This document shows, piece by piece, positions 7,937 through 55,601 of a stretch of 59,142 bases of DNA. The notes beneath the pieces were generated by a model. The model saw nothing but the letters and a program-made list of their open reading frames with translations, ran no database searches and was not told the DNA's origin. The position numbers and the translations under genes were made by a program. Within the stretch, counting starts at the first letter, position 1, and each line of letters starts with the position of its first letter. Source of the stretch: Gammaproteobacteria bacterium (lineage in GTDB: Bacteria > Pseudomonadota > Gammaproteobacteria > JAURND01); the NCBI GenBank assembly GCA_029266595.1, contig JAQSWO010000001.1:1-59142 (forward strand), given 5' to 3'.

Positions 7937-9735
7937 TAGTTTTCCTTCTTTTCATTTTGAGTGTTACTTTTTTTTAGTATTAACCCGAGCTCCAACAATT
8001 GCGCAGTACTAACGGGACCTGGCGCATGCGTTAGTGGACAACTGGCACTTTGTGTTTTGGGAAAAGCAATTACATCTCGGATAGACGAAGAACCCGTCAT
8101 CAACATGGCAATTCTATCCAGTCCAAAAGCAATGCCTCCGTGCGGTGGACAGCCATATTTAAACGCAGATAGCAGATGGCCAAATTTTTCATCCGCTTCT
8201 GCATCATCAATGCCCAATATCTTGAAAACAGCTCGTTGCAAGGCGGCATCATGAATACGAATCGAACCGCCCCCCAATTCTGTGCCATTTAGCACCAAAT
8301 CATAAGCCCGGGAAATGGCTGCCCCTGGATTTTCAGCTAACAGTTCAGGATTATTGATAGAGGGTGCCGTGAAGGGATGGTGTAATGACTGCCAACGCTG
8401 TTCTCTTTCATCCCATTCAAACATGGGGAAGTCAACTACCCATACCAGCCGCCAATCATCCTTGTTGATGAGCTGCCTATCTTGACCCAACTTGATGCGC
8501 AACGCGCTCATCGCCTCATTTACAATTTTGGCTTTGTCCGCGCCAAAGAATATCAAGTCACCATTCTGCGCCTTAGTACGAATCAATATATCTTTAACCA
8601 CTGTATCTGGTAGGAATTTTAAAATGGGTGACTGCAATCCTTCTGCCCCAGCTTCCATATCATTGACTTTGATATAAGCCAAACCTTTAGCGCCATAAAG
8701 AGACACTAGCTGCGTATAGTCGTCAATTTCTTTCCTGGATAGTGTGCTACCTTGTGGCAGTTTCAGCGCCACAACTCGACTACCTGGATCTCTGGCTGGT
8801 GCGGCAAAAACTTTGAATTCGACGTCTTGTAGCAAGTCTGCAATATCAATCAACTCTAAGGGAATGCGCAAATCCGGACGATCACAACCAAAACGTTGGA
8901 TGGCCTCAGCATAAGTCATTCGGGGGAAAGGATTAGGCAATGCAATGTTGAGTAAGGTCATGAATAAGTGTCGCATCATGTCTTCGACAAGATTTTGAAT
9001 ATCTGTCTCATCCACAAAAGACATTTCCATATCCAACTGAGTAAATTCAGGCTGCCTATCTGCACGCAAATCTTCGTCTCTAAAACAACGTACGATTTGG
9101 TAGTATCGGTCCATGCCTGAAGCCATCAAAATCTGCTTAAATATTTGGGGCGATTGTGGTAGCGCATAAAAGTGGTTGATGTTTACTCGACTAGGAACGA
9201 GATAATCTCGTGCACCTTCAGGCGTAGATTTAGTTAAAAAAGGCGTTTCTATTTCTAAGAAATGTTGCTGAACCAGTACATCACGAATGATATGGTTCAT
9301 TCGAGACCGAAAACGCATACGATCTGCCATTTCTGGGCGGCGCAAATCTAAAAAACGATATTGTAAACGGATGTCTTCGCCAACCTCAGTGTACTCATCA
9401 ATGCGAAAAGGTTGGGGCTCAGCCACGTTCAAAACATGGAGTGTATCGGATATGACCTCTACACGGCCCGTCGGCAGCTTTTCATTGACTGTGCCTTCAG
9501 GGCGATGTTTAACCGTGCCATGTATCTGAATTACGTATTCGTTTCTCACCGTTTCAGCGATTTTGAAAGAAGCCGCATGTTCGGGATTAAATACCACTTG
9601 GACTTGCCCTTCTCTATCTCTTAAATCCAGAAAAATTAATCCGCCATGATCTCGGCGCCTATGCACCCATCCACATAAAATAATGGGTTGATCTATCAAT
9701 GATTCGTTGATGTGTCCGCAATAATGGGTTCGCAT
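7936..9735 (-). CDS. aspS: aspartate--tRNA ligase
   Basis: [13 protein letters not shown]...[22 protein letters not shown]...[18 protein letters not shown]...GGGSIRIH...GLDR. The track ORF begins at an upstream TTG (9768). I prefer the ATG at 9735, which matches the canonical N-terminus. Confidence 0.93.
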
Positions 9736-9814
9736 AGTTACTCTCTTGTTGGGTTGATGGAGGAGCAAGGCTATCTCACTAAGAACAGGCTGTCATAGAC
9801 CGTAGCGTGTTCGT

Positions 9815-10129
9815 TTATTCCTTCTTCGTTTCTTTTGACTCTGTAACAGCTGGTGGTGGTGTACTTGTGTCAGTGGATGCGGCACTTGTAGAGTCTGGGG
9901 CTGCCTTGCTTTCCGTACTTCCTGCACTTTCCTTTTTAATGGGCTTTTTATCTTTGAAGTCTGTCTCGTACCAACCTGTTCCTTTCAACTGAAAACCTGC
10001 AGCAGATACTTTTTTCTGTAAGGTTTCTTTTCCGCACTCAGGACAAAGTGTAAGAGGCGCTTCGCTTAGATTTTGTAATGCCTCCATGTTATGACCGCAA
10101 ACGGCGCAGTGGTATTCGTATATGGGCAT
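9815..10129 (-). CDS. FmdB-family zinc-ribbon protein with a low-complexity C-terminal tail
   Basis: MPIYEYHCAVCGH...LTLCPECG has two CxxC pairs. The tail is rich in Ser, Thr, Pro and Lys. Confidence 0.8.
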   Translation of the reverse strand: MPIYEYHCAVCGHNMEALQNLSEAPLTLCPECGKETLQKKVSAAGFQLKGTGWYETDFKDKKPIKKESAGSTESKAAPDSTSAASTDTSTPPPAVTESKETKKE

Positions 10130-19082: not shown

Positions 19083-21935
19083 CTAAGGTGCTAGCGCTGC
19101 GTCAACCAAGGCCTTCTGCGTCTGAAGATGCAGCTTCATATAGCCTGCTGCTGGCGATGCAGAAGCTGCACGTCCTACATAGCGTAGCATTTGATCTTTA
19201 CCCAATGCGCTAGCTATGGCATCTCTTAGTACATACCACGATCCTTGATTTTCAGGCTCTTCTTGGCACCAAACAATATCTTTCACCTGCTTATATTTGG
19301 CTAATTCTGCCGCTAATGCTTTGACAGGGAAGGGATATAATTGTTCCACACGAATCAATGCAACATGTTCTAGCTGTTGTTCTCGACGCTGGACCAGCAA
19401 GTCGTAATAGACTTTCCCACTACATAAGACGACGCGCGTTATCTTCTTGCTCGTTAACTTATCAATTTCGGGGATAACTAATTGGAAGCCACCATGGCTC
19501 AATTCTTCTAAGGAAGAAACAGCTAACTTGTTACGTAAAAGACTTTTAGGCGTCATAACAACCAGAGGAATACGGCAAGGTCTTATCACTTGTCGCCTAA
19601 GGAGATGAAAAATCTGCGCTGGTGTCGTCGGCATACAAACTTGCATATTGCCTTGTGCACAAAGCTGCAGATACCGCTCTAATCTCGCAGAAGTATGCTC
19701 CGGACCAGCGCCTTCATAGCCATGCGGCAACAATAGCGTCAATCCACTTAAGGTACCCCATTTTTGCCAAGCAGAGCTCATAAATTGATCCACTATCACT
19801 TGGGCTCCATTGGCAAAATCACCATACTGCGCTTCCCAAATGGTGAGCGTCTTAGGCTCTGTACTAGCATAACCGTACTCAAACCCCATACTACCTGCTT
19901 CAGATAATAATGAATTATAAATTTGAAAAGGAGCCTGATGCTTGCTGATATTTGCTAATGGCGTGTATGTCTCCCCCGTTTGCTGATCATGCAATACCGC
20001 ATGTCTATGAGCAAAAGTTCCGCGTTGGCAGTCTTGACCAGACATACGCACCGCATAACCTTGGTCTACCAAACTAGCATAAGCCATGGTTTCAGCATAA
20101 CCCCAATCCATAGGCTGTTCGCCCTGTCCCATTTTTATGCGTGCCTGCAAGGTATGGCTCACTTGCCGTTGAACTTCAAAGCCTTCTGGTAGTTTCCGCA
20201 AACGTTCAGCCAATTCAATAAGCTTATTCTGCGGAACAGTGGTATCGGCTAATTGCATGCAATCCTGATGAGTATAAGGCAACCAGTCAGCGCCATACTC
20301 TTTGGCGCGGCCTTTATGATGTACCTCTACGACGGGCTTACCTGAGTCTAGCCTGTTTCTATAGTCTTCTACTAATGCATTCACTTCATCATCTGTGCAC
20401 ACCTTCTCGGCCACTAATTTTTGAGCATAGAGTTCGCGCGTTGTTGGGTGCTGACGTATGAAACGATACATAGCGGGTTGTGTGGCCGCAGGTTCATCCG
20501 CTTCGTTATGTCCTAAGCGGCGATAACAAACTAGATCGACGAAAATATCTTTATGGAATTTCTGTCGATAGTCCGCCGCCAGACGTGCTGCGCGGACCAC
20601 TGCTTCAGGGTCATCCCCGTTCACATGTATGACTGGCGCGTCTATCATTTTGGCAATATCGGTACAATAAGTGCTAGAACGTGACTCGCTGGCCTTGCTA
20701 GTGGTAAAACCAACTTGGTTGTTGATAACGATATGCACAACACCACCAATATTATAGGCGTCGGTTTGAGACATGCTTAGCGTTTCCATCACAATGCCTT
20801 GTCCTGCCATCGCGGCATCGCCATGCACGACCACGCCCATGACACCTTCTACACAACCTGCAGCTTGTCTTTGCTGCCTAGCGCGTACCGAGCCCATAAT
20901 CACGGGCGCTATGATTTCAAGGTGAGAGGGATTGAAAGCCAAAGCAAGATGTAAGGGTCCTGATGGCGTATCTATATCAGAAGCATGACCCAAGTGGTAT
21001 TTCACATCCGAGGAAAGATCGCCGTAATCTTTACGGCCTTCAAACTGTTCAAATAATGATTGTGGGGGATGCCCAAAGATGTTGATGAGCACACTCAAGC
21101 GGCCACGATGCGCCATACCAACGACTACTTCTTTTACATCTCTAGCAGCTGCTTGCTCATTAAGCATATGTATAAATGGGATAAAACTTTCACCACCTTC
21201 TAAAGAGAAACGCTTCTGCCCAACATATTTGGAGGCCAGATAACGCTCCATACCTTCAGCAGCGGTCAGCAGTTTAAGCGTAGCAAGTTTTTCATCCGTG
21301 GAAAGTGCTTGTCCGTGTCCTCCTTGTTCGAAGTGATGGCGCCACCAAGCACGTTCATCTTCATCACGGATATGCATGTACTCGATGCCTGTAGTACCAC
21401 AATAGGACTGGGCAAGTTTTTCAAGAATTTCTTTAAGCCTTCCTTTCCCACCCGGCAATAAGCCTTCCGCTTCAAACACTTGAGATTGATCGATTGACGC
21501 TAAAACGGGATAAGATGCCAAGCTTAGCTGAGATGGCGGAGGCTGCTTGTTATCTGAAGGGAGTGGATTGATATTCGAGGCTAAATGGCCGTTGGCACGG
21601 TAGGCATCTATCAGCTCCTTAACAGCGACCTGTTTGCGTAACTGGAGCGCATCCACCGGTCCTGATGCCGCCACCGCTGCCCGCCTAGCAAAGGGCTTTT
21701 GTGCTAGATCTATGAATTGCTGCCGCACATCGGCGTGCGAAATTGCCTGAGAAGATGCCTGAGAAGATGCTCCATTAGGAAGCATACTCTTAAAATATGT
21801 TTGCCACTCTCCATCGACAGAAGAAGGATCTTTTAAATAATCTTCATATAGATCTTCAAGGTAAGCAGCATTATTGCCAGAAAGGTAGGAAGTAGCGCGC
21901 AAGCGCTGTATTTTTGAGTCGTTTAAGTCAGACAT
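19083..21935 (-). CDS. sucA: 2-oxoglutarate dehydrogenase E1 component
   Basis: 950 aa, collinear with SucA: GMAHRGRLSVL, HGDAAMAGQG, transketolase-like C-terminal half. Confidence 0.96.
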   Translation of the reverse strand: MSDLNDSKIQRLRATSYLSGNNAAYLEDLYEDYLKDPSSVDGEWQTYFKSMLPNGASSQASSQAISHADVRQQFIDLAQKPFARRAAVAASGPVDALQLRKQVAVKELIDAYRANGHLASNINPLPSDNKQPPPSQLSLASYPVLASIDQSQVFEAEGLLPGGKGRLKEILEKLAQSYCGTTGIEYMHIRDEDERAWWRHHFEQGGHGQALSTDEKLATLKLLTAAEGMERYLASKYVGQKRFSLEGGESFIPFIHMLNEQAAARDVKEVVVGMAHRGRLSVLINIFGHPPQSLFEQFEGRKDYGDLSSDVKYHLGHASDIDTPSGPLHLALAFNPSHLEIIAPVIMGSVRARQQRQAAGCVEGVMGVVVHGDAAMAGQGIVMETLSMSQTDAYNIGGVVHIVINNQVGFTTSKASESRSSTYCTDIAKMIDAPVIHVNGDDPEAVVRAARLAADYRQKFHKDIFVDLVCYRRLGHNEADEPAATQPAMYRFIRQHPTTRELYAQKLVAEKVCTDDEVNALVEDYRNRLDSGKPVVEVHHKGRAKEYGADWLPYTHQDCMQLADTTVPQNKLIELAERLRKLPEGFEVQRQVSHTLQARIKMGQGEQPMDWGYAETMAYASLVDQGYAVRMSGQDCQRGTFAHRHAVLHDQQTGETYTPLANISKHQAPFQIYNSLLSEAGSMGFEYGYASTEPKTLTIWEAQYGDFANGAQVIVDQFMSSAWQKWGTLSGLTLLLPHGYEGAGPEHTSARLERYLQLCAQGNMQVCMPTTPAQIFHLLRRQVIRPCRIPLVVMTPKSLLRNKLAVSSLEELSHGGFQLVIPEIDKLTSKKITRVVLCSGKVYYDLLVQRREQQLEHVALIRVEQLYPFPVKALAAELAKYKQVKDIVWCQEEPENQGSWYVLRDAIASALGKDQMLRYVGRAASASPAAGYMKLHLQTQKALVDAALAP

Positions 21936-22102: not shown

Positions 22103-22861
22103 CTAACTCGTATCCTTCAACATTTCGTCTCTCAAATGGGCAATAGCCTTGGTCGGATTGAGCCCTTTGGGGCAGACATCTACACAATTCATAATGGTAC
22201 GACAACGAAACATGCTGAAGGGGTCTTCCAATGCTTCTAAACGTTCAGCCTTCTGTGTATCGCGACTATCTGCGACAAAGCGATACGCCCACAGCAATGC
22301 AGCTGGTCCCATAAACTTGTCGGGATTCCACCAAAAAGATGGACAAGATGTTGTGCAACACGCACATAAAATACATTCATATAAGCCATCCAGTTTGTTG
22401 CGCTCTTCTATCGATTGGAGACGCTCTCTGACTGGCGGATCATTCTTGTTTTGTAAAAAGGGTTTAGCCTTTTCATATTGCTTGTAGAATTGCGTCATGT
22501 CGACGATTAAATCTCGAACGACAGGTAAACCCGGCAGCGGTCTAATCGTAATATGATTACTGAAATCGAGATAAGAAGTCACACAAGCCAAACGGTTTTT
22601 GCCATTGATATTCATGCCATCAGAACCACACACGCCCTCACTACAAGAGCGCCTAAAGCCCAAGGTTGGATCCTTAATCTTTAGCGCTTCCAGCAAATCC
22701 AGCATCATCACGCCCTGAAACTCAGAGGTATGAATATCATAGTCCTGTGTATAAGGTTTTTTATCAACATCAGGATTGTAGCGATAAATGGATACTGTTA
22801 ACTGCCTGTCTTCAGGCATACCCGCATTAGAAGATGTTAGTGTAACGTTTGTCTTTGCCAT
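22103..22861 (-). CDS. sdhB: succinate dehydrogenase iron-sulfur subunit
   Basis: Three Cys clusters: CSEGVCGSDGMNING, CILCACCTTSCP, CRTIMNCVDVCP. Confidence 0.96.
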   Translation of the reverse strand: MAKTNVTLTSSNAGMPEDRQLTVSIYRYNPDVDKKPYTQDYDIHTSEFQGVMMLDLLEALKIKDPTLGFRRSCSEGVCGSDGMNINGKNRLACVTSYLDFSNHITIRPLPGLPVVRDLIVDMTQFYKQYEKAKPFLQNKNDPPVRERLQSIEERNKLDGLYECILCACCTTSCPSFWWNPDKFMGPAALLWAYRFVADSRDTQKAERLEALEDPFSMFRCRTIMNCVDVCPKGLNPTKAIAHLRDEMLKDTS

Positions 22862-38406: not shown

Positions 38407-40161
38407 TTAAGGTGGATTTATGGTTTGAGGCTCCATCATTTCCACCTCTATTGGTTTTTGTGGCACATCAGGCGACATAGGAATCAGACTATTTAAGTCT
38501 TCTCTTAATTTAATTTTCTCCAAAGTAGACAATAATAATTCTTGTAGCGCAAGAGGATAATTATGCCGTCCATGCAGCCAACCATGAAGAGCTTGTAGTT
38601 TTAAGTGATTATCAAAAATCATGATATTTTTTTGCACCCATGCGAGCATTGGATTTATTGGTTCACTTTTCCCGAAAAAAGAAACAGCTAGGGGAGGACA
38701 GGCAAGCTCAGCTAATGCTCCTAATATTTTAGCTGGGATTTTTATTAGTGCATTTTGTAATTCCTTTGGCAATTGATCATAGGATTTTGTCCAATCCAAA
38801 ATTTGTCCTATATGCTGTTGACATAATTCACGATATTGTTCGGTATATCGGTACTCAAAAATTAGGGCACCCAAATCTTTTTTTAAACATGGAAATACGG
38901 GAGAATCTTCAATTATTTTATGATTATGAATTACCTGGGGATTGGCGCCATAGGCCAAAAGCAGTGCTACACCCCATTCAATGTTTTGGTAAGCAAAAGA
39001 GAGTAGTAAAGGAACGCCATCTTCGTCCTGTATGTCAGGATCAACTCCCATAGCCAACATACGTTGTGCAATTGCCGTGTTGCCACGACACATTGCCCAG
39101 CGCAATCGTGCATTTTTCTGCGCCGTATTCATTCCGCTTGTAAGGAATTCTCTTCCCTGGCGAATGTTGAGCTCCCCTTTCTCTTTTTCTTCTTCATCCT
39201 CTGATTCGATTTTCTCACGTGTATTCAGTTGACTCAAAATATATATGATTTGATCTGGGATTACGGCCTCAACATAATGAAGTGTTTTTTGTGCGGCAGC
39301 TACAAGTGCAAAAAATTCTAAACCGTTTTTACAAACGCTTATTTTGTTTTTTATCAGTGAGAGGGCTTCTTTTTGCCCTTCCTTGATTTTATTGCTCCAT
39401 ATAAAACCAATTGCCTCTATCGCTTCTGAGAGCTCGCTCAGCAATTTTATTTTGTCTTCCTTAGAAAACACGATGCCACTATATGTATTTTGTTGTTCAT
39501 GAAGAGCATTTACGAATTCATACTCAAAAATAAGTTCTATTTTTTTTCTTAATTTATATTTATTCAACATCCTATGATAAAGATTTTTTATACGATCGTC
39601 GGTTCTGTATTCTAAAAGAAGTCTAACTGCCAAGACACGGTGGTTTCGGCAAGTAGAATCAACCGCAATCTGTAGGAGAAAATTTTCATAATCGTTAGAT
39701 GAAGAGGTACGTGCTCCATATTCCAAGATCATTGTGGCAGTTTTTAGATCAGCCTGTAATATCGCCCGCCGTAATGCATTGATAATAGGGATATTTTCTT
39801 GTGCAGGGTCCAGTCCAACTTTATGTTGCAAAAAAATCTGAACTATATTACGCCTTTTTTCTCGATTTGAGATTCCGATTGAGTCATATAAATAATTCCC
39901 TGGCAGAGGGAATGTTACGTGTTTTAAAATAGATGCTATTTTGTTCTCGTCCTCACGCTTAAAAGCTTCGGTTAATCCATTATTCAACATTTCTGGCGTT
40001 ATTATTTTATGTTGGCATAAAATAAAAATTTCTTTTGAATGCAAATTTTTCAATGCCCAATTTAGTGAATTTTCATCAAAAACATGACCCTGATTAAGTA
40101 TTTTATTTTGGATCATTTGTAGTAGAGGGGAAGGGGCTATAAAATTTTTTTCTTCCTGCAT
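38407..40161 (-). CDS. 584-aa ankyrin-repeat protein, a candidate secreted (Dot/Icm-type) effector
   Basis: ANK-like repeats include INALRRAILQADLKTATMILEYGARTS and MCRGNTAIAQRMLAMGVDPDIQDEDGVPLLLSFAYQNIEWGVALLLAYGANPQV. The C-terminal 30 aa are acidic (PIEVEMMEPQ). RBS AGGAGTGG. Strongly AT-rich. Confidence 0.75.
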   Translation of the reverse strand: MQEEKNFIAPSPLLQMIQNKILNQGHVFDENSLNWALKNLHSKEIFILCQHKIITPEMLNNGLTEAFKREDENKIASILKHVTFPLPGNYLYDSIGISNREKRRNIVQIFLQHKVGLDPAQENIPIINALRRAILQADLKTATMILEYGARTSSSNDYENFLLQIAVDSTCRNHRVLAVRLLLEYRTDDRIKNLYHRMLNKYKLRKKIELIFEYEFVNALHEQQNTYSGIVFSKEDKIKLLSELSEAIEAIGFIWSNKIKEGQKEALSLIKNKISVCKNGLEFFALVAAAQKTLHYVEAVIPDQIIYILSQLNTREKIESEDEEEKEKGELNIRQGREFLTSGMNTAQKNARLRWAMCRGNTAIAQRMLAMGVDPDIQDEDGVPLLLSFAYQNIEWGVALLLAYGANPQVIHNHKIIEDSPVFPCLKKDLGALIFEYRYTEQYRELCQQHIGQILDWTKSYDQLPKELQNALIKIPAKILGALAELACPPLAVSFFGKSEPINPMLAWVQKNIMIFDNHLKLQALHGWLHGRHNYPLALQELLLSTLEKIKLREDLNSLIPMSPDVPQKPIEVEMMEPQTINPP

Positions 40162-42919: not shown

Positions 42920-43108
42920 TCGTGCACCTCTGCGGTGCAAGCTAGCAGGCGCATTATTTTTGAACCTTATACGTAAATATAGGGATAGCTTTTGGTTGAG
43001 TTGTTGTTGTGCCCGCTGGCGTATGCCAATGAGCCTGATACGACCACCTTATCCCACCTGAACCAAAGGGTTCAGACTTCGCCCTGCTGGCGGTATCTCG
43101 GAGGCTTT
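42920..43108 (+). ncRNA. ssrS: 6S RNA (ssrS); ends approximate
   Basis: The 3' half, cacctgaaccaaagggttcagacttcgccctgctggcggtatctcggaggc, parallels E. coli 6S (CACCUUGAACCAAGGGUUCAAGGG...CUGCGGCGGCAUCUCGGAGA). It lies in zapA-ssrS-5-FCL synteny. Confidence 0.8.
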
Positions 43109-44444: not shown

Positions 44445-44909
44445 TTATTTTTTTTCACCATCGACAATTCTAACAGCCAACACATCGCACTTAGCTCCGT
44501 GTATAACTGCATTTGCCGTAGACCCCAACAGCAAACGAATACCATGCCGACCATGACTACCCACAACAATCAGATCTACCTTCAATTCCTCAGCTTCTGC
44601 CAAAATCACTAACTTTGCGGGACCCATTTTTATGATGCGATGGCTTTCAGGAACTCCTAATTTATCTCCCAGCTCATCCATTGCTTTTTGCGCATTTTCT
44701 ATGAGCATTTCTTCGACATCAGCACCCACTGCAATACCATAAGCAGCACCATAGCTACTCATATGTTCAACTGCATGAACCAGCGTCACTTTAGCATCGA
44801 GCACCTTACTAAGCGCCAACGCCCTTTTAACAGCAATATTGTCGCACGTTGGGTCTAATTCTACTGCAACCAGAATGTGCTTGTATTTGACCATTATCAT
44901 CATCTCCAT
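44445..44909 (-). CDS. universal stress protein (UspA family)
   Basis: YKHILVAVELD...VTLVHAV...DLIVVGSHGRHG...GSTANAVIHGAKCDVLAV. Confidence 0.9.
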   Translation of the reverse strand: MEMMIMVKYKHILVAVELDPTCDNIAVKRALALSKVLDAKVTLVHAVEHMSSYGAAYGIAVGADVEEMLIENAQKAMDELGDKLGVPESHRIIKMGPAKLVILAEAEELKVDLIVVGSHGRHGIRLLLGSTANAVIHGAKCDVLAVRIVDGEKK

Positions 44910-45050
44910 TTAACTAAGTAAAATCGGTATGCCTATTCGAAGTGTAGCATACAAAAAAGTAAAGAAAAGATAAGCGCTATATACTCTTTCCTTTGAAGAT
45001 CTTGGATCTAAAAAAATGCTTTTTCTGTGCTTGGTGGCAAAGGAAGGCGG

Positions 45051-45214
45051 TGTGAATAAGTTCGGTAAAACATTGGGAAAACTTGGGATAAATCTGTGGA
45101 TAAATTTATTCACATAGTTATCCACAAGAAATAGACAGGTATTACCACAGATTGTTTTTTGCATAATTCATAGTTAACTTTATGAAAATGAAAGATTATT
45201 TTATGATATCCACA
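45051..45214. promoter_or_regulatory. cluster of five DnaA boxes (TTATNCACA)
   Basis: 45051-45059 (minus, TTATTCACA), 45095-45103 (minus, TTATCCACA), 45106-45114 (plus, TTATTCACA), 45118-45126 (plus, TTATCCACA), 45206-45214 (plus, aTATCCACA, one mismatch). A weaker ATTACCACA lies at 45141-45149. Confidence 0.7.
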
Positions 45215-45215
45215 G

Positions 45216-45288
45216 AATTAAACACACATAATAGAAACAAAAAAAGATATATATATAAAATATTACTTTTTATTTAGATTAGATTTTT
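45216..45288. other. AT-rich tract adjacent to the DnaA boxes, a possible DNA-unwinding element
   Basis: gaattaaacacacataatagaaacaaaaaaagatatatatataaaatattactttttatttagattagattttt has very few G or C and contains short repeated TAGAT/ATATA units. Confidence 0.45.
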
Positions 45289-45365
45289 GGGCAAACGCCC
45301 TCCCTTTACCTCAGCCAAAAGAATCGGGTATGATCGCCAGCAGTGAAAATCAATGAGATCAATCT

Positions 45366-45689
45366 GTGATGCAAAAATTTACTACTACCATCTTGTTTAC
45401 TTTATTTGTTTTGTTAACGGCATGTTCATTAACAACGCCTTACCAACCGAACATACAGCAAGGCAATCTTATCTCAGAGCATATGGTTTCACAGTTGAAG
45501 GTTGGAATGAGTAAGGAGCAGGTTATACATATCCTTGGCGCGCCTATACTGTCTAATGCATTCGACAACAGCCATTGGGCGTATGCTTATACGTTTCAAC
45601 AAAAAGGTGGTCCTATTACCAAAAAGCATTTAGATCTGTATTTTCAAGGGAATCAATTGACACGTATAGGTGGAAATTATACACCTTGA
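45366..45689 (+). CDS. bamE: outer membrane protein assembly factor BamE (SmpA/OmlA)
   Basis: Lipobox LLTAC. IQQGNLISEHMVSQLKVGMSKEQVIHILGAPIL...HWAYAY. GTG at 45366 or ATG at 45369. Confidence 0.88.
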   Translation: MMQKFTTTILFTLFVLLTACSLTTPYQPNIQQGNLISEHMVSQLKVGMSKEQVIHILGAPILSNAFDNSHWAYAYTFQQKGGPITKKHLDLYFQGNQLTRIGGNYTP

Positions 45690-45842
45690 AGTTTTTCGCT
45701 TTAGAAGAATTTTTTCTGAAACCCAGTTAACTCCACAAACCAGCCCTCCTGAAAGCAGAGATTCAAATAACTCATCCTCCCTCTGCTTCTTCGGCTTGAG
45801 GTAACACACCCCTTTTTTTACACCTGCTTAGGAACTCATCAA

Positions 45843-46199
45843 ATGGTCAAAAAAACAACACTAGCTGTCGTCGTTCTCACGGTACCTTTCTTACTATCTG
45901 GTTGCATAGCTGCAGCTGTTGGCGCAGGTGCAGCTGCTGGTGGATATGTATTGGCAAAAGATAAAGGGAGTGCGGGCACTTATGCAGATGACTCCATCAT
46001 CACTAGCAAAATTAAGAGCCGGTATATCGCTGACATCAACTTAAAGTCCTATAACATCAGCGTAAGCACCTATGAAGGTGTAGTTGTTCTGACAGGGAGC
46101 GTGCCTAATGAAGGAATGCGTCAAAAGGCCATCGAAATCGCTCGAAATACAGCCAACGTTAGATCAGTGAATGTTACTAACTTTGCGGTGGTGCCTTGA
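45843..46199 (+). CDS. BON-domain lipoprotein (OsmY-like)
   Basis: Lipobox LLSGC. BON domain ITSKIKSRYIADINLKSYNISVSTYEGVVVLTGSVPNEGMRQKAIEIARNTANVRSV. Confidence 0.82.
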   Translation: MVKKTTLAVVVLTVPFLLSGCIAAAVGAGAAAGGYVLAKDKGSAGTYADDSIITSKIKSRYIADINLKSYNISVSTYEGVVVLTGSVPNEGMRQKAIEIARNTANVRSVNVTNFAVVP

Positions 46200-46882
46200 T
46201 GGTCATCGGTATTATTGCAGCTTTAGATGAAGAAGTTTCTTACGTCAAAGAAAGTATGATCGTTCAGCGGCAAGAGAAAAAAGCGGGTTTCAATTTTTAT
46301 TTTGGCACGTTGGTCAGTAAACCAGTTGTTCTATGTCAATCAGGTGTCGGAAAAGTTAATGCTGCAATTTGTACAACTTTATTGATTGAGGTATTTAGTT
46401 GTGGCGTCATTATCAACACAGGAGCCGCTGCTGGCTTATCCTCCGACATGGCCACGGGCGATGTGGTGGTTTCCGACAGCGTGATGCATCATGATGTAGA
46501 TGTCACTGCATTTGGTTATGAGTTAGGCCAGGTGCCTGGTATGCCATTAGCCTATGAAGCAGATAAAGCACTGATTGATATCATGCGTCATTTTTCGGAC
46601 CCTCATTTCACACATCACATGCATATAGGTTCTGTTATTGCTGCTGATGCCTTTGTTTGTAATACCACATTCGTTAAAGATAAATTTCCCATAGCTATTG
46701 CGCTTGATATGGAATCAAACGGCATTGCTCAAACTTGTCACCGCTTCAGTATTCCTTTTATAGTCATTCGGTCAATTTCTGATGATGGCGGCGAGGAGGC
46801 AAAAACAACACATGAAATGTTTTTGCAAATTGCAGGAGAAAACTCCGCCATGTTGGCAAGATTTTTGGTAGGGAAGTTGTAG
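46199..46882 (+). CDS. mtnN: 5'-methylthioadenosine/S-adenosylhomocysteine nucleosidase
   Basis: IGIIAALDEE, CQSGVGKVNAA, LDMESNGIAQ, IRSISD. The ATG at 46199 overlaps the BON gene stop. Confidence 0.9.
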   Translation: MVIGIIAALDEEVSYVKESMIVQRQEKKAGFNFYFGTLVSKPVVLCQSGVGKVNAAICTTLLIEVFSCGVIINTGAAAGLSSDMATGDVVVSDSVMHHDVDVTAFGYELGQVPGMPLAYEADKALIDIMRHFSDPHFTHHMHIGSVIAADAFVCNTTFVKDKFPIAIALDMESNGIAQTCHRFSIPFIVIRSISDDGGEEAKTTHEMFLQIAGENSAMLARFLVGKL

Positions 46883-46922
46883 GCAATAGAAGCTAACATC
46901 TTGGTAAGGGGTAATCTATTAC

Positions 46923-48074
46923 TTACTTTCTTCTTCCAATATATCCAGACTCAAACGCCACACGCAGCAAAATACCCACCACAAAACAATTCACCAATAG
47001 ACTCGTGCCTCCGTAACTCATCAATGGCAGCGTCAAGCCTTTTGTGGGCAAAAGACCGATATTTACCCCTATATTAATCATTGCCTGTAACCCTAAACAC
47101 AACGCTAACCCCCATCCTAAATACGCACTGAATAATTGCCCTTTGGTATAAGAACGCAAACTCAATAACATCGTTCGCATGATTAACACACCAAATAAAA
47201 GCACGACGGATATTTGTCCTATCAAGCCTAACTCTTCACCGAGCACTGCAAATAGAAAGTCAGTATGTGCTTCAGGGAGGTAAAACAATTTTTGCACGCT
47301 ACCTCCTAGACCTAGCCCAAAAACACCTCCCCGACCAAAAGCAATCAGCGATTGTGTGAGCTGATAACCTGTGTCATAAGGATTTTCCCAAGGGTGCAAA
47401 AAAGTGGTTAACCTTAAGAGACGATAAGGCTCGGAAATAGCAACCACCGCCAATACAGCAGCTGCAACAATCAACAGACAAATAAACTGCCATAAGCGCA
47501 CCCCCCCCAGAAACAGCATAGCCAACATGGTAGCTGTTAGCACTGCCGTTGCACCAAAGTCTGGTTGTAATAGAAACAAAAAGGCAATGCCTGCCAAAAT
47601 AAGCAAGGGCTTGATAAAACCACGAATGCGTGTCTTCACTTCATCCTGCTGCCTTACCATATAGCCAGCTAAATAAATCACCATAAACACCTTCGCTAAC
47701 TCAGATACCTGTAAAGAAAAAGGCCCTAAAGCTAGCCATCGGACACTACCATTTACTTCTCGGCCCAACCCAGGAATCAGCAACACTAGCAGTAAGATAA
47801 AACTGATGATGACGAGGTATCCTCCTACTTGCATCCAAAATTTCAGTGGAATACGTGTTGCCACCAAAGCAAAAAAACAGCCTAAAGATAAAAAAATAGC
47901 TTGCCTGGTTACATAGTAGAAGCCATGGCCATGTTGTTGATCAGATATCACTACCGAAGATGAGGCCACCATAATAAGGCCTAAACCAATCAGAGAAACC
48001 GCGCTAAATAAAATCCAAGGATCATAAGAGAAGGTGACGACTTTCTTGGTCTGTTTTTTGTGAGATCGACTCAT
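46923..48074 (-). CDS. ftsW: SEDS-family peptidoglycan glycosyltransferase FtsW
   Basis: A 10-TM SEDS protein (LQPDFGA, PEAHTDFLFAV, LPTKGLTLPLMSYGG). It lies directly downstream of murD with a 4-nt overlap, which favours FtsW over RodA. Confidence 0.85.
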   Translation of the reverse strand: MSRSHKKQTKKVVTFSYDPWILFSAVSLIGLGLIMVASSSVVISDQQHGHGFYYVTRQAIFLSLGCFFALVATRIPLKFWMQVGGYLVIISFILLLVLLIPGLGREVNGSVRWLALGPFSLQVSELAKVFMVIYLAGYMVRQQDEVKTRIRGFIKPLLILAGIAFLFLLQPDFGATAVLTATMLAMLFLGGVRLWQFICLLIVAAAVLAVVAISEPYRLLRLTTFLHPWENPYDTGYQLTQSLIAFGRGGVFGLGLGGSVQKLFYLPEAHTDFLFAVLGEELGLIGQISVVLLFGVLIMRTMLLSLRSYTKGQLFSAYLGWGLALCLGLQAMINIGVNIGLLPTKGLTLPLMSYGGTSLLVNCFVVGILLRVAFESGYIGRRK

Positions 48075-49423
48075 ACCAACCCCTCCACATATTTGATAAA
48101 AGTGTCTCCTCTATCTTCAAAATTCTTGAACATATCGAAACTGGCACATGCGGGGGCCAATACAACGGAATCTCCGAATGCTGCTGTCTGATGAGCGATC
48201 ATCACTGCCTCCTCAAGGCTATCTGCACGTTTAATGGGCACAACTCTAACCACAGCCGTTTCTATTAGATCGGCATCTTCACCAATCAAAACCAACTGCT
48301 TCACATGCTGAGCCATCACTTTTTTTAATGGTGAAAAATCTGCGCCTTTTCCTTGTCCACCAGCAATGACGATCAACTTTCTATCCCCATCATGACTTAA
48401 ACCTTCTATCGCTGCTTGTGCTGCACCCACGTTAGTGGCCTTAGAATCGTTATACCAATCGGCACCATTAATATTGGCAATCCATTGGCAGCGGTGCCTC
48501 AAACCTGGAAAAATGCGTAAAGTTTGCAGCATAGGTGTCAATGGTAAGCCCATCACTGTCCCTAATGCTAAAGCTGCCAAGGCATTGGCTACGTTTGGCT
48601 TACCTCTCATTTTCATTTCACTAACAGGCATTAAGCATTGCTCACCTTTTGCAAAATACGTGATATTTTGCTGGGTGATTAAACCAAAATCGCTTTCTGT
48701 TTCTGGAGCAGGAAATCCAAAACGCAAAGGTGCTTGCAATGATAATCCTTCCCAAGTTACGGGATCATCTCTATTGATCAGGGGATGCTGGCAATCATGA
48801 TAAATCCGCTGTTTGGCATGCAAATAATCTGCCATGCTGTCGTATCTATCCATATGGTCTTCACATAAATTTAAAATCACAGCACTGAGTGGGTGTAAAG
48901 AGAAAGTAGTTTCGAGCTGAAAACTAGAAAGCTCTAAGGCGTAGGTGTGTGGCGTAGGATACTGCAATAGATCAAGCACAGGTTCTCCTAAATTTCCGCC
49001 GATGCATACATCTATGTTCGCGGTTTTGCCCATCTCGCCCAACAAAGTGGTCACAGTACTTTTACCATTTGATCCAGTGATACCCACGATAGGCGCTTTG
49101 GCTAACAAAGCAAATAATTCTACATCGCCCACAACCGGAATACCGGCTGTAACGGCCTCGGCAATGACTGGCTCATGCAGCGATACACCTGGGCTGAGGA
49201 TAATGCGTGCGGCTTGTAGGCATAGCGTTCTATCAAAGCCCCCCAAAAAAAGTTGAACGGTGGGAAATTGTGCTTTGATGTCCTCCAAGCCTGGAGGACA
49301 AGTGCGACTGTCGGTGGCAGCAACATTAAACCCGTTTTCCAATAGATATCGGATACAAGATAGTCCCGTTTTGCCTAAACCAACAACAACTTGCGGGGGA
49401 GAGGTGTGATCGATAGAATTCAT
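48071..49423 (-). CDS. murD: UDP-N-acetylmuramoylalanine--D-glutamate ligase
   Basis: VVVGLGKTGLSC, GITGSNGKSTV, NDSKATNV. ATG at 49423 with an AAGGAAG RBS. The track extension to 49486 is rejected. Confidence 0.92.
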   Translation of the reverse strand: MNSIDHTSPPQVVVGLGKTGLSCIRYLLENGFNVAATDSRTCPPGLEDIKAQFPTVQLFLGGFDRTLCLQAARIILSPGVSLHEPVIAEAVTAGIPVVGDVELFALLAKAPIVGITGSNGKSTVTTLLGEMGKTANIDVCIGGNLGEPVLDLLQYPTPHTYALELSSFQLETTFSLHPLSAVILNLCEDHMDRYDSMADYLHAKQRIYHDCQHPLINRDDPVTWEGLSLQAPLRFGFPAPETESDFGLITQQNITYFAKGEQCLMPVSEMKMRGKPNVANALAALALGTVMGLPLTPMLQTLRIFPGLRHRCQWIANINGADWYNDSKATNVGAAQAAIEGLSHDGDRKLIVIAGGQGKGADFSPLKKVMAQHVKQLVLIGEDADLIETAVVRVVPIKRADSLEEAVMIAHQTAAFGDSVVLAPACASFDMFKNFEDRGDTFIKYVEGLV

Positions 49424-49497
49424 GCGAAGCTTCCTTCTTAATTGTTGTTCATTTTTTGTAGGGTCTGGTCTGTTTACATTGAGCACAGAAAATCGGC

Positions 49498-50498: not shown

Positions 50499-51272
50499 TT
50501 GAACCTATCTTTTTACGATCGTGCAGCCCAAACCACTAATCCAACGGCAAAAGCGCTGTTGCAATTGATGGATACCAAAAAAACTAATTTGTGTCTCTCA
50601 GCCGATCTTTCTTGTGCTGGGGATGTGTTAGCATTAGCCGATAAACTGGGTCCCCAGATATGTGTTTTCAAAACACATGTGGATATCATTCAGGATTTCA
50701 CCCGGTCTTTTGCTTCTGAACTAACCAATCTCTCTGAAAAGCATAACTTCATCATTTTTGAGGATAGAAAATTTGCCGATATTGGTCACACTGTTAAGGA
50801 ACAATATGGCAAAGGGCTATATTCCATCGCAGATTGGGCGCCTATTACTAACGCACATATTTTGCCGGGGGAAGGAATTATCGATGGGTTAAAATCAATC
50901 GGACTTAACAAAGGAAATGGCTTACTACTCCTTGCGCAAATGAGCTCGAAAGGGAACCTATTCAATGAGGCTTATACTGCATCGGCCGTTGAAATGGCTA
51001 AAGCCCATCGAGATTTTGTTATAGGCTTTATCACGCAACATCGTTTAACCGAAGATCCTGCCTTTATCAGCTTCACCCCCGGGATCAGCAGTACCGATCA
51101 AGGCGACGCGCTTGGCCAGCAATATGTCACCCCTAGACAAGCGATTTTAGAAAACCATACTGACGTTATTATTGTGGGTCGTGGTATTTATGGCGCAACG
51201 GACCCTATTGCGGCAGCAGAGGCTTACCGTGCAGAAGCTTGGCAAGCTTATACCGATCGCCTTTGCCTATAA
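50499..51272 (+). CDS. pyrF: orotidine 5'-phosphate decarboxylase, eukaryotic URA3-like type
   Basis: KTNLCLSADL, CVFKTHVDII, IIFEDRKFADIGHTV, WAPITNAH, DFVIGFI, GDALGQQY, IIVGRGI. It is collinear end to end with yeast URA3 as I recall it. TTG start. Confidence 0.9.
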   Translation: MNLSFYDRAAQTTNPTAKALLQLMDTKKTNLCLSADLSCAGDVLALADKLGPQICVFKTHVDIIQDFTRSFASELTNLSEKHNFIIFEDRKFADIGHTVKEQYGKGLYSIADWAPITNAHILPGEGIIDGLKSIGLNKGNGLLLLAQMSSKGNLFNEAYTASAVEMAKAHRDFVIGFITQHRLTEDPAFISFTPGISSTDQGDALGQQYVTPRQAILENHTDVIIVGRGIYGATDPIAAAEAYRAEAWQAYTDRLCL

Positions 51273-53739: not shown

Positions 53740-54735
53740 TTAGTCAAAAACATCTGCCAATGCTTCAGCACTTAACATTTTTTCAGCCCAATTAGATAGA
53801 GTATGTGTATCTGCGCTCAATATGCGTTTTATATATATAGAGGGCAAATCGCCAAAGCGTATCTTAAGTAAGCGCTGCAACAATGCCGCTCCTTCTTCTT
53901 GCCTACCCTCCTGCCTACCTTCCTGCCTACCTTCCTGCCTACCTTCCTGCCTACCTTGCTGGCGGCCTTGCTCTGTAAAATGTTCTGCGAGGGTCATAAT
54001 ATTTTTCTCCAATTTTGGTGATAGCTGGTCATGAATGAGCGCTTGCAAAGATGCTGCGTTATGTATTTGACCAGCAAGAAAAAAGTAGTGAAATACTGTC
54101 CGCACATACTCAGCCCCACCTTCTCGTTCGATTTGCTTAATGAGATCCAAAACATTTTCTATGAACGGAATCAGATCTCGCTCAGAAATATGTTTTAAGG
54201 ATAGCTCCATCATACCTGACCAAATTTGCTGCTTCAAATCTTCGTCCGGTATCTGTGAGAGGTCCAGTAAGTCAAATGGCTCTAACAACGTTCTTTCAGC
54301 CAAGTTTTTATGTTCCCCAAATAAGTCAAATAAATTAGTGGAGTATGGATATTTTCGCTTACCATGATAAATCACCAACGTATAAACAAGGGGTAGTTCT
54401 TTGTGCTCTTTATAATGCTGGTCCATAATCTTGATTGAATACTGTAGTTTTCTAAATGGCATCAGGCGGTCAGCATTGCGTTGATGTTCTAGTAGCGTGT
54501 ACAAATACCCTAATTTCCCATTAGCCCATTTCAATGAGAAGAGCACATCAGAAAGATGTAGCTGCAAAGTTTCATCCACAAAAGTACCTTGGCACATCTT
54601 CAATGTTTTTAAATCAACTAATGCCTTAATATCCGTTGGCAAATGCGTTTCCATAAATTCTTTAGCAACCCGTGGATCACTTAAAGACCCGCGAAAGAAA
54701 CGATCATGTGGATTTGGCACGATATTTTTTGTCAT
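53740..54735 (-). CDS. Rpn family (YhgA-like, PD-(D/E)XK) recombination-promoting nuclease / putative transposase
   Basis: MTKNIVPNPHDRFFRGSLSDPRVAKEFMETHLP is the family N-terminal signature. Nuclease-core context DVLFSLKW...LYTLLEHQ. The ATG at 54735 forms an ATGA overlap with the nadC stop. Confidence 0.85.
   Translation of the reverse strand: MTKNIVPNPHDRFFRGSLSDPRVAKEFMETHLPTDIKALVDLKTLKMCQGTFVDETLQLHLSDVLFSLKWANGKLGYLYTLLEHQRNADRLMPFRKLQYSIKIMDQHYKEHKELPLVYTLVIYHGKRKYPYSTNLFDLFGEHKNLAERTLLEPFDLLDLSQIPDEDLKQQIWSGMMELSLKHISERDLIPFIENVLDLIKQIEREGGAEYVRTVFHYFFLAGQIHNAASLQALIHDQLSPKLEKNIMTLAEHFTEQGRQQGRQEGRQEGRQEGRQEGRQEEGAALLQRLLKIRFGDLPSIYIKRILSADTHTLSNWAEKMLSAEALADVFD
53898..53961 (-). 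repeat. 12-bp tandem repeat encoding GRQ[E/Q], 6 units
   Basis: The plus strand reads cttgcctaccctc(ctgcctaccttc)x3ctgcctaccttgctg, one unit longer than the copy at 53643. Confidence 0.85.
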
Positions 54736-55601
54736 ACAGATTCCTGCCAAGCCTTCATCGATAAATCAACATGGCCTGCGCCATAGGTGAGTTCCCCCAC
54801 CGACGCATAGTTCACACCTGTTTTTGCAATATCTACAATACGATCCAAGCGGATATTTCCTGACGCTTCCGTTTCGAAAATGCCTTGGCACGCTTTGACA
54901 CAAGCCGACATATCTTCTAAGGACATATTGTCTAGCAGGACGCGATGTACCTTCGCTTGTCCATGTTCTAATACGATGTGTAACTCTTCTTGTGATCGTA
55001 CCTCAACGATAACAGGCAAAGTATGTTGGTTTAAACAAGGAAGCTCGATAAGCGTTTTTTCCATGTCACCCAATAAATCAACGTGCGTATCTTTAATCAT
55101 TACCGCATCATATAGGCCCATACGATGATTCATCCCACCGCCACAGTGTACGGCATACTTTTCTAACAGACGAAATCCTGGCGTTGTTTTTCGCGTATCT
55201 AAGATTTTCAAATCATACATTGAGATTTTATCCACGTATTTTTTGGTTAATGTAGAGATAGCACATAAATGCCTTAAAAAATTTAAAGCTGTGCGCTCCC
55301 CCTTGAGTAACGTTTTCGCATCTGCTGTAACAGACAACAATCTTTCTCCAGGCATCAAAAGATCGCCATCAGAGCGATCCGATTCTATACGAGCATCTTC
55401 GGATAGCTTGGAAAATAAAAAGCGTGTCCACTCAATGCCACAGACGACAATAGGTTCATGGTGCTTTGAAATAATATGTGCCGTGCCCTGTATTTTATCC
55501 TTTGGAAATAATAAATCTGTGGTGATATCGCAGAAATTTTCACCCAAGTCCTCTTGTAGTGAAATATTTAATAATGTTTCGTTGAGTTCCGTGATTTTCA
55601 T
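54732..55601 (-). CDS. nadC: nicotinate-nucleotide diphosphorylase (quinolinate phosphoribosyltransferase)
   Basis: ERTALNFLRHLCAISTLT, ILDTRKTTPGFR, GGGMNHRMGLYDAVMIKDTH, and a C-terminal SVGELTY. Confidence 0.92.
   Translation of the reverse strand: MKITELNETLLNISLQEDLGENFCDITTDLLFPKDKIQGTAHIISKHHEPIVVCGIEWTRFLFSKLSEDARIESDRSDGDLLMPGERLLSVTADAKTLLKGERTALNFLRHLCAISTLTKKYVDKISMYDLKILDTRKTTPGFRLLEKYAVHCGGGMNHRMGLYDAVMIKDTHVDLLGDMEKTLIELPCLNQHTLPVIVEVRSQEELHIVLEHGQAKVHRVLLDNMSLEDMSACVKACQGIFETEASGNIRLDRIVDIAKTGVNYASVGELTYGAGHVDLSMKAWQESV

Follow-up and report, generated by a model that had tools for sequence, protein, structure and literature searches.

The window, by which we mean the whole stretch of 59,142 nucleotides that was analysed, contains a 456 bp spacer flanked by uspA and bamE. 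The JGI gene caller places no gene between these two genes, an Rfam search of the spacer returned no RNA family at E <= 1, and a promoter and terminator scan of the spacer found nothing above shuffled sequences. The first-pass annotation had expressed doubt about an 84-aa open reading frame at 44910-45164, and this doubt was justified: the frame has no Pfam match and no JGI gene call, and we have discarded it as a protein-coding gene. The features of the locus are the following.

44445-44909, minus strand: uspA, the gene accompanying the module across the family; transcribed away from the spacer
44910-45365, no strand: whole uspA–bamE spacer, 456 bp, an oriC-like element by motif-by-motif alignment with 32 related loci
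45051-45059, minus strand: perfect DnaA box TTATTCACA, the last box before uspA, R4-like and facing inward
45095-45103, minus strand: perfect DnaA box TTATCCACA, the first box in the opposite orientation
45106-45114, plus strand: perfect DnaA box TTATTCACA (consensus TTATNCACA)
45118-45126, plus strand: perfect DnaA box TTATCCACA (consensus TTATNCACA)
45141-45149, plus strand: weak box-like site ATTACCACA with three mismatches, alone not above chance
45175-45187, minus strand: IHF-like 13-mer TTTCATAAAGTTA, two mismatches to WATCAANNNNTTR, exactly 18 nt from the R1-type box
45206-45214, plus strand: R1-equivalent box ATATCCACA with one mismatch (TGTGGATAT in the uspA frame), adjoining the AT tract
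45216-45288, no strand: AT-rich tract, candidate DNA-unwinding element, aligning with the conserved ATAATAATATATATATTTAA-type tract of the relatives
45223-45240, minus strand: T-periodic run TTGTTTCTATTATGTGTG, a degenerate counterpart of the TAGTAGTTGTTATTATAG run of the relatives (33-locus alignment, trio scoring)
45369-45689, plus strand: bamE, a lineage-specific neighbour on the AT-tract side, where 29 relatives have rpmH; transcribed away from the spacer

The four perfect boxes are present at the coordinates and on the strands given in the first-pass annotation, and the two further sites that it had called a one-mismatch box (45206-45214) and a weaker box (45141-45149) read as described, the latter with the three mismatches listed above. 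The perfect matches to TTATNCACA fall inside 76 bp and, counted together with the one-mismatch box, there are five boxes inside 164 bp; elsewhere in the 59-kb window there is a single perfect box, at 22746. Under a Markov model with the composition of the spacer 0.03 boxes are expected per 456 bp, which gives a Poisson probability of 3e-8 for four or more, and in 150 simulated windows no stretch of 100 bp held more than two boxes. The boxes form two orientation groups, those at 45206-45214, 45118-45126 and 45106-45114 pointing one way and those at 45095-45103 and 45051-45059 the other. At 45095-45114 two of them make up the near-palindrome TGTGGATAA-AT-TTATTCACA, with the TTAT ends inward and a gap of 2 bp, and after another 3 bp comes the third box. 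Such a tight triple is peculiar to the window; most relatives lack it.

The tract next to the boxes had been described as almost free of G or C. Its extreme AT-richness (87.7%) stands and it includes the most AT-rich 70-mer of the window, but the tract does contain nine G or C. Thus a cluster of consensus DnaA boxes lies in non-coding DNA and is adjoined by a candidate AT-rich unwinding element.

On the bamE side the gene order is bamE, a BON lipoprotein gene, mtnN, a murD-ftsW fragment, pyrF, nadB, an Rpn-family nuclease gene, nadC, a gene for a Wzy-type protein and a cardiolipin synthase gene. Looked up with a GTG start, bamE gave no record, and the version with an ATG start was matched. On the other side of the spacer we noted a full-length match to 6S/SsrS RNA (RF00013) at 42924-43108 on the plus strand, which with 34.1 bits stays below the gathering score of 46.4 (E 1.3e-4) and which is placed canonically between zapA and the 5-formyltetrahydrofolate cyclo-ligase gene. 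Further away there are ankyrin-repeat proteins at 38407-40161 (minus strand) and at about 36.3-36.7 kb. The Pfam match in the window is weak, and the JGI annotation of the identical contig has unmarked Ank_2 and Ank_5 matches in a small neighbouring open reading frame. Ankyrin-repeat proteins are typical of host-associated Legionellales and Coxiellaceae, and together with the identity of the relatives described below they place the organism among the Coxiellaceae-like Legionellales.

The module upstream of uspA in related genomes

An alignment of UspA homologues yielded 74 loci from species-representative genomes. About 35 of these, from Coxiellaceae and Legionellales, share an ordered module in the 640 bp upstream of uspA, which is composed of an AT-rich tract, a T-periodic run of TAG, TTG or TTA triplets, an R1-type box, an 18-nt gap, an IHF-like site, further boxes and an inward-facing last box, after which uspA follows. 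Measured from the uspA start of the relatives, the AT tract lies 300-380 bp, at least one TGTGGATAA box 130-240 bp and the last TTATCCACA box 80-125 bp upstream; the corresponding box of the window at 45051-45059 is found about 150 bp upstream of the uspA start.

We aligned the core of the module from 33 loci, the window included, with MAFFT. The consensus consists of ATAATAATATATATATTTAA, TTATTGTTGTTATTAG, a spacer of 12-15 nt that is G/C-rich at its start, the box TGTGnATAA and, after another 17-18 nt, WATCAANNNNTTR. The last element corresponds to the IHF consensus and is perfect in 8 of the 33 aligned loci and has at most one mismatch in 16 of them, mostly at the gap of 17-18 nt. The IHF-like site TTTCATAAAGTTA of the window keeps the gap of exactly 18 nt, yet it differs from WATCAANNNNTTR at two positions. 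The box at 45206-45214 has the position and the orientation of the TGTGnATAA box of the relatives and of R1 in E. coli. The T-periodic run is strong at four of the loci (L016, L035, L044 and L046) and weak in the window; in several relatives it is rich in TAG, as for example TAGTAATAGTAGTAGTAG in L016, and it resembles DnaA-trios, with the orientation published for these (PMC8287927). Most relatives have fewer perfect boxes than the window, whose AT tract is intact. By position as well as by architecture the element is orthologous to the predicted origins of the relatives.

Locus L044 also drew our attention for other reasons. At 9400-9900 the unwinding module (AT tract, TAGTAGTAGTTATTATAG and box) is duplicated in tandem, and at 1478-2969, which is 7-8.5 kb left of its origin, there is a separate group of six perfect DnaA boxes.

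On the far side of the AT tract the relatives have a characteristic gene string. In 29 of them rpmH-rnpA-yidD-yidC-mnmE leads away from the tract, often followed by mnmG, gidB and parA, and in the complete genomes of Ca. Coxiella mudrowiae and Ca. Paracoxiella cheracis this string was confirmed with Pfam. The hallmark neighbourhood of an origin (rpmH, rnpA, yidC, mnmE/G, parAB, dnaA) is thus present in 29 relatives and missing from the window, where tblastn found none of rpmH, rnpA, yidC, mnmE, mnmG, dnaA and dnaN. The earlier remark that no dnaA, dnaN, gidA or rpmH is nearby and that the context is non-canonical was therefore borne out, and this context is the one unusual point of the element. 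Synteny between the flanks of the window and those of the relatives is limited to uspA and an OmpA-family gene.

We then compared the strand composition around the module. In 23 of 27 relatives, measured over flanks of 8-10 kb, the GC skew changes sign at the module, from negative values on its left (mean -0.044) to positive values on its right (mean +0.045), and this switch holds even where the genes on the right-hand side are on the opposite strand. As controls served loci with a UspA homologue and no box cluster upstream, of which 1 of 14 shows the pattern (binomial P 8e-11 for 23/27). Averaged over 24 loci, the cumulative G-C curve forms a V whose lowest point falls 0-500 bp upstream of uspA; about 4 of the 27 relatives have no clean V-shaped profile. 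Where uspA and the cluster are separated, as in L024 with the cluster 3.8 kb upstream of uspA beside rpmH and in L020, L029 and L034 with the cluster 0.8-1.0 kb upstream, the skew minimum stays with the cluster.

Since the skew minimum is at the module in 23 of 27 relatives and in 1 of 14 controls and since it follows the cluster, the module upstream of uspA is the predicted oriC across the family. We also considered that the boxes might be there solely for regulation of the uspA promoter. This was rejected, because the uspA genes that are distant from the origin (L012, L024 and L056) have no boxes upstream and the skew minimum tracks the cluster. The locus L012 (12830, plus strand), from a fairly close relative with 70% UspA identity, is the only one at which dnaA was seen within 10 kb, here 2.4 kb downstream of uspA; there are no boxes upstream of this uspA and the skew rises strongly across the locus.

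Strand composition, gene order and assembly around the element

The skew minimum and strand switch that we find at the module in 23 of 27 relatives are missing from the window. To the left as well as to the right of the element the GC skew is negative, the bamE-side flank being 14 kb in this analysis; read in the uspA frame the flanks have +0.084 (left) and -0.011 (right), and at the element the cumulative curve passes through no minimum. The skew at third codon positions (GC3), which largely removes the effect of the coding strand, is -0.12, -0.14 and -0.04 on the plus strand over 1-45 kb and -0.105 over 45.3-59 kb, with genes on either strand behaving alike. The gene ftsW has a leading-strand signature and yet points toward the element. 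The first-pass annotation had put forward the strand bias as half support for an origin at this position. This argument has to be abandoned, as neither GC nor GC3 skew changes sign across the element and most of the genes to its right are on the minus strand as well.

We consider that the uspA–bamE spacer is probably the oriC of an uncultured Coxiellaceae-like gammaproteobacterium and that its bamE-side flank was probably relocated recently. The missing switch would be a consequence of this relocation. Gene order in the clade changes fast, so that a stale skew signal at the window is explicable. The four closest UspA relatives have each a different left flank. In relatives with 83% FtsW identity the neighbours of murD-ftsW differ, one having murD-ftsW-proS and another a 621-aa gene between murD and ftsW, while a relative with a 1.71-Mb genome retains murD-ftsW-murG. 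Different neighbours in such close relatives point to recent shuffling. The local skew at murD-ftsW of the 1.71-Mb relative is itself mixed, so no inference on the type of rearrangement was drawn from it. The gene pyrF is found at 19973 on the minus strand in the closest relative (L003/L007), 10 kb right of uspA, and in the window at 50499-51272 on the plus strand, 5.5 kb left of the element in the uspA frame, its strand relative to uspA being unchanged. This arrangement, together with the wrong-sign skew that we see, would result from a non-inverting transfer out of the right replichore; as it concerns one gene, this is only a hint.

Two further observations concern the same flank. In the window murD-ftsW (46923-49486, minus strand) forms an isolated fragment of the division and cell-wall cluster, the loci compared including L082 and a contig of GCA_041443065.1. 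Between nadB and nadC there is a gene for an Rpn-family recombination-promoting nuclease or ISNCY-like putative transposase (53740-54750, minus strand), which may be what drives the shuffling of genes at this locus.

The absence of the switch could also be read in another way. The element would then descend from the oriC of the family, replication would start elsewhere with forks running leftward through the whole window, and the boxes would serve for datA-like titration or for control of the divergent uspA and bamE promoters by DnaA. The uniform polarity of skew and GC3 skew across the element is what one would expect in this case. The missing rpmH, gidA and dnaA fit as well, and L044 is an example of additional box clusters and duplicated modules within the family. 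The relatives that likewise have no clean V-shaped profile (about 4 of 27) are in keeping with a displaced origin, too. However, a copy that no longer fires should lose its AT tract and its ordered geometry, whereas in the window no part is missing and perfect boxes are more numerous than in most relatives, unlike what a decaying relic would show. Moreover, no second origin is known for this organism, boxes are absent from uspA loci that lie apart from an origin, and the fast change of gene order can explain the stale skew signal. The chromosome needs an origin and the origin of the family is this module, and we therefore favour an active origin and rate the displacement as rather unlikely. 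We also think it unlikely that the element is a fully preserved oriC which is either no longer used as start site or is one of two origins, and which is retained as a site for DnaA titration or promoter control.

A more trivial possibility is that the element is an oriC but that its context on the bamE side is an artefact of the assembly, in the form of a chimeric join or a minority structural variant; in that case the skew anomaly would have no biological cause. We compared the window with contigs of the JGI metagenome 3300045996. A first contig ends at window position 44941 and has two mismatches over 10.5 kb. A second one of 3,493 bp covers 44815-48307 and runs unbroken from the 5' end of uspA through all boxes, the AT tract and bamE to ftsW, with six mismatches that are all located beyond 46.4 kb. 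The adjacency of uspA, the element and bamE is thus seen twice, in the window and in an independent JGI contig. There are breaks between the JGI contigs at 44815-44941, where they overlap by 127 bp, and near 48.3 kb, so that the 3.5-kb piece with origin, bamE, BON, mtnN and ftsW is bounded by branches of the assembly graph. These branches on both sides are in favour of an artefact, but the spanning contig with its few and distant differences is not, and within 43.5-50 kb we found no repeat that could explain the contig breaks or a mis-join. We conclude that an assembly artefact is quite improbable. The contig breaks and the differences beyond 46.4 kb suggest heterogeneity of strains or of structure; an exact 32-mer search for sister strains gave no match in the metagenome contigs.

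Comparison with known origins and DnaA-binding loci

We read the oriC of E. coli from the genome record (NC_000913, 3925744-3925975), where R1 is TGTGGATAA, R4 is TTATCCACA and the gap from R1 to the IHF site is 18 nt. The order of the module is the same: an AT-rich region, the R1 box, 18 nt, the IHF site, boxes pointing the same way and terminal boxes in the opposite orientation. In both cases the flanking genes are transcribed outward, and the DnaA-dependent mechanism would be shared by analogy. The window differs in having no GATC clusters or 13-mer repeats, in its degenerate IHF-like site and in the three perfect boxes packed at 2-3 bp. Its neighbours are uspA and bamE, whereas those of the E. 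coli origin are mnmG and mioC.

The closest counterpart is the rpmH-uspA module of the Coxiellaceae, as in Ca. Coxiella mudrowiae CRt (NZ_CP011126.1, at about 23 kb) and Ca. Paracoxiella cheracis (NZ_CP186485.1, at about 33 kb). The neighbouring uspA, the ordered motifs and the orientations of the boxes are the same; in the window, however, bamE-BON-mtnN-ftsW-murD replaces rpmH-rnpA-yidC-mnmE-mnmG, and the switch in skew is absent. In C. burnetii, Suhan and co-workers are said to have described in 1994 an autonomously replicating sequence (ARS) beside rpmH/rnpA, a fragment of 403 bp that carries two DnaA boxes, AT-rich 21-mers and a rightward promoter, which would be the homologous rpmH-side module of the Coxiellaceae. 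Two-dimensional gels of this rpmH-side ARS reportedly gave no initiation intermediates, and we count this against the oriC reading. In the collection of papers searched on the Coxiella origin we found none that pairs oriC with uspA.

In Legionella pneumophila the origin is located at the rpmH-dnaA junction (DoriC ORI10010024), with a predicted unwinding module at 3397741..12 (PMC8287927 supplement). Common to these rpmH-dnaA origins and to the ancestral Coxiellaceae arrangement are rpmH beside the origin and unwinding modules of the box-plus-trio type. The right-hand neighbour in Coxiellaceae, in contrast, is uspA and not dnaA, and dnaA is found elsewhere.

The basal unwinding system (BUS) comprises a DnaA box, a spacer and DnaA-trios (PMC8287927, PMC6669920), the rule being that three or more NAN trios follow one another within 16 bp of a DnaA box that has at most two mismatches (PMC8287927). 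Beside the box at 45206-45214 of the window there are at most two consecutive NAN triplets (TAT TAT), fewer than this rule requires. In the relatives runs such as TAGTAATAGTAGTAGTAG are followed by a G/C-rich spacer and then by a box, in the published orientation. The periodic base of these runs, however, is T at triplet position 1 as opposed to A at position 2, and the run of the window, TTGTTTCTATTATGTGTG, is degenerate.

The first-pass annotation had also named the DnaA-reactivating (DARS) and the DnaA-titrating (datA) loci as possible types. As a DARS the tight triple at 45095-45126 would promote the release of ADP from DnaA. In the DARS core boxes I and II are opposed with the CACA ends inward and a gap of 5 bp, and boxes II and III are in tandem with a gap of 3 bp (PMC6868365); the core of E. 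coli DARS1, as read from the genome, is TTATCCACT, 5 bp, TGTGGATAA, 3 bp and TGTGTATTA. The triple of the window is TGTGGATAA, 2 bp, TTATTCACA, 3 bp and TTATCCACA, and although it likewise has three adjacent boxes, one of them inverted, its opposed pair has TTAT ends inward and a 2-bp gap, so that only the 3-bp tandem gap matches and a DARS is rejected on core geometry; considering also the AT tract, the further boxes and the orthology to origins, this role has next to no likelihood. DARS1, DARS2 and datA resemble the element as clusters of DnaA boxes in non-coding DNA, with IHF being involved in datA and DARS2, but neither type has an unwinding tract or the position at the skew minimum in relatives. 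A datA locus, in which a box cluster with an IHF site stimulates the hydrolysis of DnaA-ATP and does no unwinding, has no sequence signature that would set it apart from half of an origin. Such a role is disfavoured, as the unwinding-type AT tract and the orthology to the putative origins at the skew minimum speak against it.

The spacer as a probable replication origin

Of the proposal in the first-pass annotation that the spacer is a candidate oriC, the box cluster and the AT tract hold and the comparative orthology adds to them, while its own strand-bias argument does not. The oriC reading is supported because position and internal order are orthologous to a module with which the skew minimum coincides in 23 of 27 relatives. 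We count against it that there is no skew switch and that the hallmark genes are missing, as well as the two mismatches of the IHF-like site and the degenerate trio-like run.

We infer the binding of DnaA and IHF, the unwinding and the firing in this organism by analogy with oriC of E. coli. DnaA would occupy the high-affinity boxes of both orientation groups. A bend of the IHF type 18 nt from the R1-type box would put the DnaA oligomer onto the T-periodic, AT-rich tract, the tract at 45216-45288 would melt and the helicase would be loaded there. The genes uspA and bamE would be transcribed outward on either side of the origin.

Most likely the element is of an ordinary kind, a chromosomal oriC, in a shuffled neighbourhood that lacks the usual switch in strand composition. 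The genome of an uncultured Coxiella-like bacterium thereby has an origin annotation that can be put to use. This helps to rotate and check assemblies of metagenome-derived genomes and could aid the construction of shuttle replicons and coverage-based estimates of growth rate in a poorly tractable group. The missing switch is a reminder that local skew alone can mislead in fast-rearranging genomes. If the origin were truly displaced, the window would present a natural experiment in origin relocation in a fast-rearranging, host-associated lineage of the Coxiellaceae. For the family as a whole the comparison reveals a module of E. coli-like order, with AT tract, R1-type box, 18 nt and IHF-like site, which moves with uspA across the Coxiellaceae and whose ancestral place is between rpmH and uspA.
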